In this document: in pieces, positions 2 through 63,960 of the stretch | Numbering within the stretch: the stretch's first letter is position 1 | Layout of the letters: each line of letters opens with the position of its first letter | Source of the DNA: Candidatus Spyradenecus sp. | Lineage (GTDB): Bacteria > Verrucomicrobiota > Verrucomicrobiia > Opitutales > UBA953 | DNA: 64,000 bases | NCBI GenBank assembly: GCA_045535075.1 | Contig: JAZSKX010000007.1 | Coordinates: 96,001 to 160,000, forward strand | Reading direction: 5' to 3' | Position numbers and translations under genes: made by a program | Notes under the pieces: generated by a model | Database searches by the model: none | Seen by the model: only the letters and a program-made list of their open reading frames with translations | What the model was told of the DNA's origin: nothing

Positions 2-1408
2 GACGCGCTTGCGGAAATGCGCGTAAGCTATTGGCAGGTTTGCCCGCTCGGCCCGACCGGATTCGGTGATTCGCCGTACCAGTGTTTCTCTTCTTTCGCT
101 GGGAATCCGTATTTAATCGACTTTGAAAAACTCGTCGAACTCGGTTTGCTTGAAGAGGCGGATTTGGGGCTTTTGCGCGCGCTTCCGCGGGAACGCGTTG
201 ACTACGGAGCGCTTTGGAGCGCATTTTATACGACGGCACGCAAGCTTTGCGGGAATATCCGGAAGAATCGTTCCCTGTTAAAAAAAATCGGAGATTTCGA
301 GGTTTTCCGCCGCGACAATGCTTATTGGCTCAAGGGATTTTCGCTTTATACCGCGCTGAAAACGCATTTTAAGGGGGAAGCGTGGTATCGTTGGCAGGAA
401 AAAGCCCGCAATTTTAATTCGGCAATAAAAGCAAAATGGCCCGCAGACGTGCTTGCGGAAATCGAACAAACGGAGATTATTCAGTTTATTTTCTTTTCGC
501 AATGGCGGGAACTTCGCGCTTATGCGCGAGAACGCGGCGTTAAAATTATCGGAGATACGCCGATTTTCACGGCTCTGGACAGCGCGGACGTTTGGCAGAA
601 TCCCGAAATTTTCCAAATTGACCCGAAAACTGCCGAGCCGCTCGCCGTCGCGGGTGTTCCGCCGGATTATTTTTCGGCAACCGGGCAGCTTTGGGGAAAT
701 CCCCTTTACGACTGGTCTGCACTTAAGAAAACGAATTACGCGTGGTGGATTGCGCGTCTTCGCGCTTGTTTTACGCTTTATGACGTCGTTCGTATCGACC
801 ATTTCCGCGCGTTTTATGACTACTGGCGCATTCCTGCGGGAGCGCCCGACGCGCGCACGGGCGAGTGGGTGCTCGGCCCGGGATTGGAATTCTTTGAAAC
901 CGTGCGCAAGGCTCTCGGCAACGTGCAACTTATCGCGGAAGATCTCGGCGATATGAACGACGGCGTGCGCAAATTGCTCGCAGATACGGGATTGCCCGGG
1001 ATGGCGGTTTTGCAATTCGCTTTTGGAGGCGACCCGAAAAATCTTTACCTGCCGCACAATATCGGTGCCAATACAATCGCGTATCCGGGAACGCATGACA
1101 ACAATACGGTCGTCGGCTGGTACACCGCTTGCGGCGAACATGAGCGTGATTTCTTCCGGCGCTATCTTTGGTGCGACGGGAACGCCCCGCATTGGGCGAT
1201 GATTAACGCAGCGATGAAGTCGCACGCACGCTTAGCGGTCGTTTCCGTTCAGGACTTGCTCGGGCTTGGCGCTGAAGCGCGTTTCAATGAGCCGGGAACG
1301 GATAGGAAAAACTGGCAATGGCGCCTTTCCGACGCGGAGTTTGAACGGCTTTGCGGCGAAACCGTTTGGCGTTTCCGTGAGCTGATTGAAATTTCCGCAC
1401 GCAATTAG
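2..1408 (+). CDS. malQ: 4-alpha-glucanotransferase (amylomaltase, GH77), 5' end cut by window edge
   Basis: GH77 motifs WQVCPLGPTG-SPY, GVPPDYFSATGQLWGNPLY, RIDHF, AEDLG, GTHDN; frame is open to the window start. Confidence 0.95.
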   Translation, partial: DALAEMRVSYWQVCPLGPTGFGDSPYQCFSSFAGNPYLIDFEKLVELGLLEEADLGLLRALPRERVDYGALWSAFYTTARKLCGNIRKNRSLLKKIGDFEVFRRDNAYWLKGFSLYTALKTHFKGEAWYRWQEKARNFNSAIKAKWPADVLAEIEQTEIIQFIFFSQWRELRAYARERGVKIIGDTPIFTALDSADVWQNPEIFQIDPKTAEPLAVAGVPPDYFSATGQLWGNPLYDWSALKKTNYAWWIARLRACFTLYDVVRIDHFRAFYDYWRIPAGAPDARTGEWVLGPGLEFFETVRKALGNVQLIAEDLGDMNDGVRKLLADTGLPGMAVLQFAFGGDPKNLYLPHNIGANTIAYPGTHDNNTVVGWYTACGEHERDFFRRYLWCDGNAPHWAMINAAMKSHARLAVVSVQDLLGLGAEARFNEPGTDRKNWQWRLSDAEFERLCGETVWRFRELIEISARN

Positions 1409-1443
1409 TTGTCTAATTTCCCCTAATCAAAAAGAATATTTTC

Positions 1444-1881
1444 ATGAAAAAAATCGGTATTCTTAACGGTCCCAATTTAAATTGGCTCGGTAAACGTGAG
1501 CCCGAAGTCTACGGGAACAAAACTCTGGAAGACTTGGAACATGGACTCGCGGATTACGCGGCAAGTCTCGGCAATTGCGAACTCGTGTGCTTTCAGAGTA
1601 ATCATGAAGGCGAGTTAATTGACAAGATTTACGATTGGGCAGGGCGCGGAGTCGCTGGAATTGTATTCAATCCCGGTGCGTTCACGCATACGAGTATTGC
1701 TTTGCGCGACGCACTTGCCGGCGCGGGGATTCCGACGATTGAAGTCCACATTTCCAATGTGCACGCGCGGGAAGAATTTCGTCATCGTTCGCTAACGGCA
1801 CCTGTTTGTGTCGGGCAAATTTGCGGACTTGGTTTGAAAGGTTATGCCTACGCGCTGGAAGCTTTGGTTAATCCGGAATAA
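1444..1881 (+). CDS. aroQ: type II 3-dehydroquinate dehydratase
   Basis: [44 protein letters not shown]. Confidence 0.97.
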
Positions 1882-2045
1882 TTTCACAATCGTCTACAAA
1901 AAATAGTTTGTTGTAGTGAAGCGGCTTAGAAGCTTGCTTTGCCGAAAGATGCTTTTGGTGCTTTCCCTGTAATAAAAAATACTATACTTTGGAATCATTC
2001 CATTTTTAGGGATTTCAAATTAACTCAGAAAGTCAACTCAACGAT

Positions 2046-62870: not shown

Positions 62871-62927
62871 GGTTCGGAGAAAGCTTCGGAAAATAAAAAA
62901 CCTCTTCGTATCGAAGAGGTTAAAAAG

Positions 62928-63003
62928 TGGAGCGGGCGAGCGGGTTCGAACCGCCAACATCCACCTTGGCAAGGTGGTACTCTACCAATTGAGCTACGCC
63001 CGC
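62928..63003 (-). tRNA. tRNA-Gly(GCC)
   Basis: Minus strand GCGGGCGTAGCTCAATTGGTAGAGTACCACCTTGCCAAGGTGGATGTTGGCGGTTCGAACCCGCTCGCCCGCTCCA. Confidence 0.97.
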
Positions 63004-63051
63004 AAACTCAAATCAAATAAATGATTTAAATTATGAGTTGATATAGAATAC

Positions 63052-63960
63052 TTATTTCTCGGGAGCGTCAATATTTTTTTTGAGCATTTCGCGAATATTT
63101 TTCGGAATCGGCATGAGAGCCGCTTTTTCAAGGGCTTTGGCGAAGGGCTCCGAAAGTATCGTGCGGATGACGGGAATGATTTTTTCCCGTTTTTGAGCAG
63201 GATAAACCAGTAAAAACTGGACGGAAAGCGGATAGTCATGATTGTAAATATTCGCGGGAACGGGGCTGTACGCCGTGCTTTTTTCGCCTTTTTTGTTGGC
63301 GGGAGAGATTGCCAGCGTTTTGAGCGACGGCTGTCCGATTGGCGGCGATGCGGTAAGTGCGATGGCGTTGCCGGTGTTGAGAACGGCGCGGACGGCGTCT
63401 TCGTCGCTGTCGGTCTTGCGGATGTCTTTGTTGAATCCTGCGCGCGGGAAGACGAGGCTTTGGAAGGTAACGCCGCCGGCGTTGTCGTTTTCCGTGCTGA
63501 GGATGCGTTGGATTTTCGGTGTTCCCGTGACTTTGTCCGAGATTTCATTCCAGGAATTGAGCGGTTCTTCCGAGAAATTGGCGAAGATGCCGCGCAGTTG
63601 GAAAAGTGAAAGTTCTTCGACGGGATTGGATTGCGGGACAATCAGGTAGGAAACCTGATAGCCGATTGCGTTGGCGCGCCAGGTTTTGTCTTTGAATTCC
63701 GGAATGCTGTTTGAGTCGGCAAGCATGACGATTGCGAAGTCGATTTCGCCTTTGCGCAGCTGATCCAAAGCGACTTTGCTTCCGAGGAGCTCGCCTTCGA
63801 TGGTTATCGGCGTTGCGGATTTTTTCAGTTCTTCCCTGAGGACGGTTTCTGCGGTTCCGACAAGAAAGTCCGAGCCTGCGTATTTGAGCGTTTCGGCGTG
63901 AAGCGTTCCCGCAAAAAGTGTTCCCGCGAGCGCGGTAAGGAGCGTGATTTTTTTCAACAT
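63052..63960 (-). CDS. PstS-like periplasmic substrate-binding protein (PBP superfamily)
   Basis: Signal peptide; AGSD, GS..AL..L..G.ID.A, V...NPV.ELS..QL..IF, P...NI....YPL. Confidence 0.75.
   Translation of the reverse strand: MLKKITLLTALAGTLFAGTLHAETLKYAGSDFLVGTAETVLREELKKSATPITIEGELLGSKVALDQLRKGEIDFAIVMLADSNSIPEFKDKTWRANAIGYQVSYLIVPQSNPVEELSLFQLRGIFANFSEEPLNSWNEISDKVTGTPKIQRILSTENDNAGGVTFQSLVFPRAGFNKDIRKTDSDEDAVRAVLNTGNAIALTASPPIGQPSLKTLAISPANKKGEKSTAYSPVPANIYNHDYPLSVQFLLVYPAQKREKIIPVIRTILSEPFAKALEKAALMPIPKNIREMLKKNIDAPEK

Follow-up and report, generated by a model that had tools for sequence, protein, structure and literature searches.

The 9-mer GCGGGAACG pervades the 64,000-nucleotide stretch of a Candidatus Spyradenecus genome that is analysed here (hereafter the window, by which we mean the whole of that stretch), and it recurs throughout the genome to which the window belongs and in every species of its genus. 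The real unit is R-CGGGA-AC-G(C), that is, a strict core of five bases with graded flanks. We tentatively regard it as a genus-specific self word that would enhance the uptake of DNA in natural transformation, a reading to which the comparison of sequences lends, in our judgement, not quite even chances. In what follows, G000 is the genome holding the window, the other G numbers are congeneric species, and C numbers are contigs; the window comes from contig C8 of the G000 assembly, which has 1,949,087 bases in 18 contigs and a completeness of 99.45%. Counts of the core refer to the 7-base CGGGAAC, while GCGGGAAC/GTTCCCGC stands for the 8-mer and its reverse complement. The feature under study is the following.

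Positions 187..63927, both strands: word field, with 162 copies of GCGGGAAC, 230 of CGGGAAC and 128 of GCGGGAACG; the widest core-to-core gap is 1.2 kb.

The exact copies of GCGGGAAC/GTTCCCGC in the window, 85 on the plus strand and 77 on the minus strand, agree with the initial annotation, in which about 160 copies had been counted by hand with a split of about 85:75. In 100 dinucleotide-preserving shuffles of the window the 8-mer occurs on average 5.2 times and at most 13, none reaching 162; if bases are taken as independent at 52.6% GC, 2.4 8-mers and 0.6 9-mers are expected, as had been estimated beforehand (2–3 and fewer than one). The base following the 162 copies is G in 128 cases, A in 20, T in 14 and C in none, which bears out the earlier statement that about four copies in five extend to the 9-mer and that C never comes next. 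A halo of one-mismatch copies had also been described, and this part stands only for the window, where such copies do exist (ACGGGAAC 37, CCGGGAAC 15, TCGGGAAC 16, GCGGGAAA 29, GCGGGAAT 20 and GCGGGAAG 21); genome-wide, enrichment is confined to the flank positions, whereas variants of the core CGGGA remain at background. G000 as a whole contains 5159 copies of CGGGAACG, 4032 of GCGGGAAC and 3244 of GCGGGAACG (1581 forward and 1663 reverse), and words containing the core are its most frequent words at every k from 6 to 12. All contigs longer than 16 kb have 2.0–3.2 CGGGAACG per kb; two small contigs, C18 and C3, have 0 and 3 cores, respectively. By arithmetic, the 9-mer occupies 1.5% of G000 and about 3% of G003, the latter value being derived from a rounded genome size.

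The choice of null model matters for a word of this frequency. Maximal-order Markov expectations gave ratios of 1.0–1.2 and were discarded as uninformative, the sub-words on which they are based being themselves dominated by the word. In their place we used codon shuffles and an order-2 Markov model, the latter trained on G000 after masking of all word copies. Under the masked model GCGGGAACG is enriched 57-fold genome-wide (3244 copies vs 57 expected), and so are one-letter variants with A at position 1 (36-fold), G at position 7 (10-fold), and A or T at position 9 (15- and 12-fold), while changes within CGGGA lie at 0.3–3.3 times expectation, which is background. For the codon null, synonymous codons were permuted within each gene (n = 20), keeping the proteins and the codon usage per gene, a usage already raised by the word itself; the 1423 genes came from a crude caller (86% coding) that missed some, for example at 8616–9965 of the window. 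Sense 9-mers number 1606, against a mean of 148 and a maximum of 176 in the shuffles, and antisense 9-mers number 1030, against a mean of 85 and a maximum of 114. Since the codon shuffles leave an excess of about 11-fold, the enrichment does not vanish once codons and peptides are preserved, an outcome that would have refuted the initial annotation. Alignment of 6527 CGGGAAC copies yields a consensus that is pyrimidine-rich at positions -3 and -2, followed by G (62%) or A (24%), CGGGAAC, G (79%) and C (46%). Information extends only from about 3 bases before to 2 bases after the core, the flanks being flat beyond positions -3 and +9 (at most 0.02 bits); because it spans only about 11 bases, there is no longer repeat around the word. 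A strict short core with graded flanks has the appearance that contact between a protein and DNA would be expected to produce.

The placement of the word is equally informative, and is summarized here for G000.

CGGGAACG copies by location (n = 5159): 2540 genic in sense orientation, 1682 genic in antisense orientation, 934 intergenic and 3 at gene boundaries.

The density of CGGGAACG is 2.53 per kb within genes and 3.37 per kb between them. With our own gene calls, the 9-mer is distributed among the three frames as 965/355/283 in sense and as 198/154/677 in antisense, so that all frames are used in both orientations, with GCG-GGA-ACG as the favoured sense reading; the multi-frame, both-strand and intergenic placement that had been noticed in the window thus extends to the genome. 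Relative to the G-rich strand the copies divide 2325:1902 (55:45), as measured in the 80 of 88 bins of 20 kb that have a clear GC skew. Since genes are oriented 59:41 and the sense bias is 60:40, a ratio of about 52:48 would be expected by an arithmetic estimate, and gene orientation largely explains what skew there is. A polar word of the type of Chi or KOPS (FtsK-orienting polar sequences) is therefore rejected, in keeping with the lack of strand skew reported at the outset. Gaps between cores (n = 6511; mean 295, median 208) are distributed almost exponentially, with fewer very short gaps than expected and an average of about one core per 300 bases, or 3.35 per kb genome-wide. Gaps above 2.56 kb are in excess, 16 vs 1.1 expected, and the long gaps fall in two islands, G000:C8:22803-35120 and C16:185000-219000, where core density drops to 0.81 and 0.79 per kb, respectively, four-fold below the genome. 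Four of the five island proteins scanned match phage families; phrog_310, which we take to be a Mu-like transposase, is present in both islands, and the C16 island has in addition a large terminase and a tape measure protein. Both prophage islands are missing from G013. The two Mu-like prophages are thus poor in the word.

The taxonomic range of the word was determined by counting the 9-mer, against a reversed-word control, in 31 genomes, in which the genus is represented by exactly 19 species representatives.

15 word-rich species of the genus: 1660–3280 copies per Mb, 46- to 112-fold over control.
G001, G002 and G013 (word-poor): about 360 copies per Mb, 10- to 14-fold over control.
G014 (word-poor): 179 copies per Mb, 9-fold over control.
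12 genomes of 12 other families in the same order: 0–1.2 times control.

All 19 genomes of the genus are therefore enriched 9- to 112-fold, and the word never exceeds 1.2 times the control in the 12 sister families; confinement to a single contig, which would have spoken against the initial annotation, is contradicted at the level of both genome and genus. It is the same word in all 19 species, even if their DNA has diverged by up to about 30%. Another dialect in the word-poor genomes was searched for in 50–81 kb samples of G001, G002, G013 and G014 and in 1.75 Mb of G013, and was rejected: the word is unchanged in these genomes, only less dense, and no second short word stands out beside it. 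A repeat of a different kind was seen in G013, in which AGATTAAAG has 326 copies in 1.75 Mb vs 48 in G000; words of this type are parts of a dispersed repeat of about 80 bases with AGATTAA/AGCTTAA units, often forming tandem clusters between genes (L147, L220; G013:C5:148-2728, C2:72183-72204). As to the provenance of these organisms, the sequence is present in gut or faecal metagenomes of sheep, goat and other animals (20 rows from 10 studies), and the nearest clusters of its DnaB in the protein atlas belong to Verrucomicrobiota. This placement is indirect, DnaB relatives from named genomes reaching no more than 39% identity; the sub-threshold matches of the secretin and of two pilin-like genes, given below, also point to this phylum.

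Within genes the word is held at fixed places. When the carB genes of 16 genomes are aligned by codon, the core sites prove to occupy the same codons across the genus; ten consensus sites were defined, each present in at least 7 of 11 word-rich genomes, a choice that is partly circular. In 10 of those 11 genomes, 0–1 of the 21 third positions within the sites differ, compared with 16–43% elsewhere, and a check free of circularity gives the same picture, 9 of the 11 core sites in the carB of G009, the most distant genome, being intact in G016. Values for the word-poor genomes and for the eleventh word-rich one are listed below.

G001 (word-poor) carB: 10 of 21 third positions differ in the sites; 30% of other third positions.
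G014 (word-poor) carB: 10 of 21 in the sites; 38% of other third positions.
G013 (word-poor) carB: 4 of 21 in the sites; 32% of other third positions.
G002 (word-poor) carB: 3 of 21 in the sites; 36% of other third positions.
G008 (word-rich, the exception) carB: 11 of 21 in the sites; 43% of other third positions.

In G008 the carB gene (L130) has lost 7 of the 10 consensus sites despite the word-rich genome, and may itself derive from a word-poor source. A wider comparison of G000 with G013 (967 gene alignments, median DNA identity 81%, covering 83% of G013) followed 3508 core sites of G000: in G013, 803 of them are unaltered, while one change is seen in 1378, two in 742, more than two in 445 and indels in 140. 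Conversely, 803 of the 1031 core sites of G013 are intact in G000, and hence the sites of word-poor G013 are largely a subset of those in G000. The losses in G013 are mainly at third positions, G to C and A to C or G. Third-position divergence from G013 is 38.5% within G000 sites vs 40.1% outside, which fits decay toward preferred codons in G013 combined with some gain in G000, the direction of gain and loss being taken from carB alone. The word is kept at the level of DNA by something that reads about 9–11 bases. A comparison of gene content between G000 and G013, made with no prior hypothesis, yielded no candidate for this reader: over 1.75 of about 2.1 Mb of G013 (83%), with a match defined as at least 50% identity over half the length, 414 of 1423 genes in G000 have no counterpart; gene order is shuffled to such a degree that synteny confirms only 17 absent blocks, and the 17 non-prophage proteins taken from these blocks and examined by eye look like isoleucyl-tRNA synthetase, glutamine synthetase, ankyrin and outer-membrane proteins and the like.

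Between genes, many copies are arranged in inverted pairs, GTTCCCG...CGGGAAC, whose spacing clusters at 13–22 bases, with 58 pairs at exactly 19. There are 205 adjacent inverted pairs 9–30 bases apart, and among the 162 that are not wholly within a gene, 147 are preceded by an A-run, followed by a T-run, or both (73 of them), as anticipated by the annotation that had placed the word in terminator stems; an inverted pair lies within 100 bases of 182 of 1422 gene 3' ends. The typical arrangement is AAAAAAGCGTTCCCGTG-loop-CGCGGGAACGCTTTTTT, and such pairs form the stems of intrinsic terminators. Three examples in the window are given below.

33926..33954 (no strand assigned): terminator-type hairpin, GCGTTCCCGT...GCGGGAACG followed by a T-run, the stem being two copies of the word.
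23745..23780 (no strand assigned): inverted pair upstream of carB, CGCGTTCCCG...CGCGGGAACGCG; the left end of the carB tract, 23770, lies within the second arm.
27226..27267, plus strand: carB terminator, consisting of an A-run, an arm ACGTTTCCGCG (one letter off the word), a loop, an arm CGCGGGAACG and a T-run.

Similarity to all other genomes compared stops at this carB terminator. For the DNA uptake sequence (DUS) of Neisseriaceae and the uptake signal sequence (USS) of Pasteurellaceae, a recent preprint gives about 75–90% as the proportion of inverted repeats that lie in predicted terminators (10.1101/2025.10.24.684340).

The window is, moreover, a mosaic. BLAST searches against the genus single out five tracts of 1.0–3.5 kb, together 11.9 of the 64 kb (19%), that are 97–99% identical to G016.

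1898..4311, plus strand: tract 1, pyruvate formate-lyase; 97% identity to G016, 94% to G007 and 93% to G010 vs 87% to G013.
21898..23651, minus strand: tract 2, gene for 592 amino acids without Pfam family; 98% to G016, 94% to G007 and 91% to G010 vs 86% to G013.
23770..27267, plus strand: tract 3, carB; 98.9% to G016, 96.9% to G007 and 93.4% to G010 vs 87.4% to G013.
44866..48075, plus strand: tract 4, pntA/pntB transhydrogenase; 98% to G016, 97% to G007 and 97% to G010 vs 85% to G013.
53206..54225, plus strand: tract 5, FAD-dependent oxidoreductase; 98% to G016, 95% to G007 and 83% to G010 vs 77% to G013.
27224..32174, minus strand: example of native DNA, bamA and dnaB; 82–83% to G001/G002/G013 and 68–73% to G016/G007/G010.

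Outside the tracts the window is 71–92% identical to G001/G002/G013 and 68–73% to G016/G007/G010, and the native bamA–dnaB stretch has nine copies of GCGGGAAC in 5 kb. The ComEC and DprA proteins of G000 are, respectively, 63–64% and 76–77% identical to those of G001/G002/G013 vs 33–37% and 56–59% to those of G016/G007/G010, while its carB protein is 99–100% identical to that of G016/G007. By these identities G000 is a sister of the word-poor clade, with recent gene-sized uptake from a distant word-rich congener. The gene for class A RNase P RNA (18800–19197, minus strand, 224 bits), with 91–92% identity to G001/G002/G013 and 82–83% to G007/G010, agrees with this native relationship. A first tree, made from carB, put G000 beside G016/G007; since carB is an import, that tree misplaces the genome itself. 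The mosaic is not an assembly artefact, because its junctions are bridged at 98–99% identity by contigs that came out of separate assemblies, from runs of three further studies: those of X1 cover 20501–25795 (88 differences) and 25766–29000 (25 differences), those of X2 cover 20720–23052, 23023–24130 and 26983–27721, and one of X8 covers 23597–24057.

From their shortness and their position in the best-conserved genes, we infer that the tracts are the product expected of homologous recombination following transformation. Four of the ten tract ends are no more than some 25 bases away from a core, three of them in terminator hairpins, and no core is near the other six. Tract ends coincide with gene ends because synteny stops there. 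The neighbours of carB differ in all nine genomes compared, the flanks of tract 3 not being syntenic in any of them. In 80 kb of word-poor G013 no tract matches a species from beyond its clade at 93% identity or more (the best reaches 89%), and the contrast in imports between G000 and this genome is suggestive only. Besides the five tracts, positions 40461–41638 of the window (peptide chain release factor) are 90% identical to G010 and 84% to G004/G018, while a longer match to G001 at 38146–41642 averages 75%; this segment may be an older or partial import. Gene order in the genus is very poorly conserved (loci L117–L126, for carB); unmatched genes of G000 are mostly flanked by genes that lie on different contigs of G013. 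A second carB-like gene, 50–53% identical to the carB of the window, occurs in G018, G004, G009, G003, G006, G015, G005, G012 and G014 (L135–L142), and is missing from G000 and its nearest relatives.

The genes that a transformable bacterium would be expected to possess were then looked up in G000, with the following result.

C5:25.8–31.8 kb: PilB/GspE, a PilT-family ATPase, a second PilB/GspE and PilC/GspF in one cluster.
C12:6.7–13.6 kb: secretin of 984 amino acids with pilM/N/O-like genes, the latter read from their neighbourhood.
C1:259100–262397 and C5:99026–99451, among others: seven genes with a prepilin N terminus, four of them consecutive at the first location, and a pilin of 141 amino acids at the second.
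ComEC, 570 amino acids: Competence domain and a weak DUF4131 match.

With 435 bits, the PilT-family ATPase exceeds its cut-off of 319, and the best model for the secretin is the type IV pilus family of Akkermansia Amuc_1098, below the curated cut-off. Two of the pilin-like genes, in the four-gene cassette on C1, give weak N-terminal matches, again below cut-off, to two NCBIfam models named 'Verru_Chthon cassette'. A gene for DprA is also found, and ComEC, DprA, the three ATPases and at least seven pilin-like genes are present in all 19 species of the genus, with no stops within the matches listed. Because this machinery is widespread in bacteria, and is matched in the control genomes too, its presence is necessary but weak evidence. 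An extra pseudopilin cluster (four N_methyl genes) with a fourth PilB/GspE-type ATPase was noted in G001, G002, G013, G014, G004 and G018; G012 has extra pilin genes with three ATPase matches only. As a correlate of word decay this cluster was rejected, for its presence also in word-rich G004, G018 and G012 does not track word density.

How could a word of this kind spread through a genus and be held there, even at silent positions? The explanation that we favour, tentative as it is, starts from a surface receptor binding double-stranded DNA that bears the word, most likely one of the seven type IV pilin-like proteins, for example of the four-gene cassette. The PilT ATPase would retract the pilus and draw the DNA through the secretin, ComEC would bring one strand into the cell, and DprA with RecA would recombine it with the homologous resident gene. 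Fragments bearing the word would enter more often and replace resident alleles, so that the word would spread and be maintained by molecular drive plus selection; inverted pairs would have been co-opted as terminator stems, and the word would decay by ordinary mutation wherever its reader was lost or weakened. The reading of the word at the cell surface, the bias in uptake, the identity of the reader and the origin of the imports by transformation are what we infer from the genomic pattern. More doubtful, in our judgement, is the larger proposition that this constitutes a third uptake-sequence system, independently evolved and the first outside Proteobacteria, with a reader from a pilin cassette of Verrucomicrobia type unrelated to ComP, gene cassettes crossing between species diverged by about 30%, and decay upon loss of the reader; the origin would be independent because there is no relative of ComP.

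The proposal of an uptake signal in the initial annotation has fared well with respect to the codon null, the taxonomic range, the lack of polarity, the terminators, the depletion in prophages and the presence of pilus, PilT, ComEC and DprA genes, and less well in what concerns a reader. Several points weigh against it. ComEA was not found in G000, the sole HHH_3 match over the cut-off lying in a frame of 805 amino acids that we take to be Tex-like. ComEC has neither a beta-lactamase-like nor a C-terminal nuclease domain and scores below the cut-off for full-length ComEC/Rec2. No relative of ComP_DUS occurs among the seven pilin-like proteins by Pfam search (E ≤ 0.01); beyond N_methyl they have just two sub-threshold Pfam hits, PT-TG and T2SSG, both unrelated, and no candidate reader can presently be singled out among these sequences, though a receptor unrelated to ComP may well exist. 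Nor can word decay be attributed to the loss of competence genes, a cause that we considered and discarded: the word-poor genomes possess intact genes for ComEC, DprA, the pilins and the PilB/PilT/GspE ATPases, so that loss of the machinery does not explain it. Other routes of gene transfer could account for the imports, and G013 has tracts of 94–97% identity to its sister G002 (97% over 10 kb) vs a background of 88–91%, so that recombination occurs outside the word-rich genomes as well. In the literature searched, we found no account of natural transformation in Verrucomicrobiota. Finally, DUS and USS are quoted as taking up to 1% of a genome (PMC3630211), and the present word is 1.5–3 times as dense as these known uptake sequences, nearer to HIP1.

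The last comparison leads to the main rival explanation, namely that the word is a non-palindromic counterpart of HIP1 (highly iterated palindrome 1, GCGATCGC) of cyanobacteria, a chromosome word bound by an intracellular factor for the nucleoid, replication or repair and kept by ordinary selection, with no link to uptake. A site for a nucleoid or recombination protein, which the initial annotation had named as an alternative, may likewise be what the word is. One core per 300 bases and a 57-fold excess are within the range given for HIP1 (PMC5861425), the conservation of sites within and between reading frames is shared, and the lack of ComEA and of a ComP-like receptor, as well as competence genes that stay intact where the word decays, would fit the loss of another kind of reader. 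We nevertheless consider the HIP1-like reading rather unlikely. No such DNA-binding factor was found. The word is, besides, asymmetric, present in both orientations and mildly denser between genes; prophage depletion and paired terminator arms are as in DUS and USS, even if a chromosome word can accommodate both, and the short imports between species are not what a HIP1-like word predicts.

Improbable, in our view, is the role of a recombination signal, either a Chi-like site for a helicase-nuclease or an anchor of microhomology for cassette swaps. It would make sense of the poorly conserved gene order, of the flanks of carB that differ from genome to genome and of the tract ends that fall close to a core or in a terminator hairpin, a word every 300 bases offering shared anchors across species diverged by about 30%. 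Yet most tract ends have no core nearby and match gene ends anyway, the strand ratio, mostly due to gene orientation, is unlike that of the skewed Chi and KOPS, and no Chi that we know of is enriched anywhere near 57-fold.

Still less probable is a by-product of mutation or repair bias without any reader, for instance a very-short-patch-like repair tied to a methyltransferase, which would be the form taken by the methylation-driven motif that the initial annotation had offered as an alternative. The genus does have varied methyltransferase genes, and the losses in low-density genomes follow codon preference (GCG to GCC, GGA to GGC or GGG). Among the families PF02384, PF01555 and PF00145, searched in G000, G003, G009, G013 and G014, none tracks the word: PF02384 is missing from G003, PF01555 from G000 and PF00145 from G009, all three word-rich, so that no tested family is common to the three high-density genomes and the alternative is weakened. 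One-letter variants of the core, C-to-T changes included, stand at 0.3–5.5 times expectation and are not depleted; one repaired position cannot make a word of nine bases with a 57-fold excess, and orthologous sites remain intact across a silent-site divergence of about 43%.

A footprint of a mobile or terminator hairpin akin to REP (repetitive extragenic palindromic) sequences or MITEs (miniature inverted-repeat transposable elements), with the genic copies incidental, would account for the 162 inverted pairs outside genes with their preferred 19-base spacing (58 pairs) and A/T-run flanks, but can hardly be right when 4222 of 5159 CGGGAACG copies are single, inside genes and in all frames, when conservation ends at about 11 bases with flat flanks, and when copies lie at orthologous codon positions across species.

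Among other features of the window, there are tRNA genes at 17909–17980 (plus strand) and 62931–63003 (minus strand), a gene at 58811–60889 (plus strand) in which BspA-type leucine-rich repeats are fused to a caspase (Peptidase_C14) domain and, next to it, a gene at 60890–61903 (plus strand) with a Sel1 repeat and a domain like that of the formylglycine-generating enzyme.

Returning to the uptake reading, a third system in an unrelated gut phylum dominated by uncultured organisms would, if true, imply that self-recognising sex has evolved repeatedly and that a new receptor awaits discovery. Full-text searches found no paper treating the word as a genome feature, the string matches listed being primers or the like, and wherever sequence-guided uptake is discussed in the literature searched, the families concerned are Neisseriaceae and Pasteurellaceae; we know of no other family with sequence-guided DNA uptake. 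The present word is denser than any described uptake sequence and occurs in a phylum for which none is reported in that literature. The genus also provides a natural experiment: 15 word-rich species, a sister clade whose load is lower by a factor of four to five and a further word-poor species all keep their pilus and ComEC genes, and these decay lineages make the question of upkeep (drive or selection, and by which reader) testable by comparative genomics, and the genus a good place to find the reader. On the practical side, the word distinguishes resident from foreign DNA in these genomes irrespective of species, most strong terminators are recognisable by it, and it would be the first addition to any DNA meant for transforming these bacteria. 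Trees of single genes are misleading in this genus, as follows from the 19% of the window that came from a distant congener.

The closest parallel among known systems is the DUS of Neisseriaceae, which is read by ComP. As described for DUS, the word is short and asymmetric, has thousands of copies on both strands, and lies both within and between genes (PMC3630211; 10.1101/2025.10.24.684340); it has a strict short core, which is CTG in DUS, with graded flanks (PMC3630211); and it is restricted to a clade, forms terminators as inverted pairs, is poor in foreign DNA and is accompanied by mosaics of imports between species (PMC3630211; 10.1101/2025.10.24.684340). It differs in belonging to a Verrucomicrobiota-like phylum, in being an unrelated word of 1.5–3 times the density whose function is deduced from sequence, and in having no dialects, one word serving 19 species, with neither a ComP_DUS relative nor ComEA found. 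With the USS of Pasteurellaceae, whose receptor is described as still uncertain (PMC12616744), it shares a 9-base core, a frame bias within genes, even spacing and terminator pairs, and differs from it in phylum, word and density, as well as in having no AT-rich flanking segments, since the information ends at about 11 bases. The resemblance to HIP1, as this is described, lies in a frequency of about one per few hundred bases, in sites conserved within and between frames and in a function that is likewise not known (PMC5861425); HIP1 reaches a 15- to 300-fold excess and more than one motif per gene (PMC5861425). HIP1 is, however, a palindromic octamer, whereas the present word is asymmetric and has no common methyltransferase among the three families searched. 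The HIP1 palindrome contains a methylation site. Chi and KOPS/AIMS (architecture imparting sequences), lastly, are also over-represented asymmetric words, of eight bases, that are read by DNA-processing machines, but they are strongly skewed between replichores and far less enriched, in contrast to the 55:45 distribution of the word described here.

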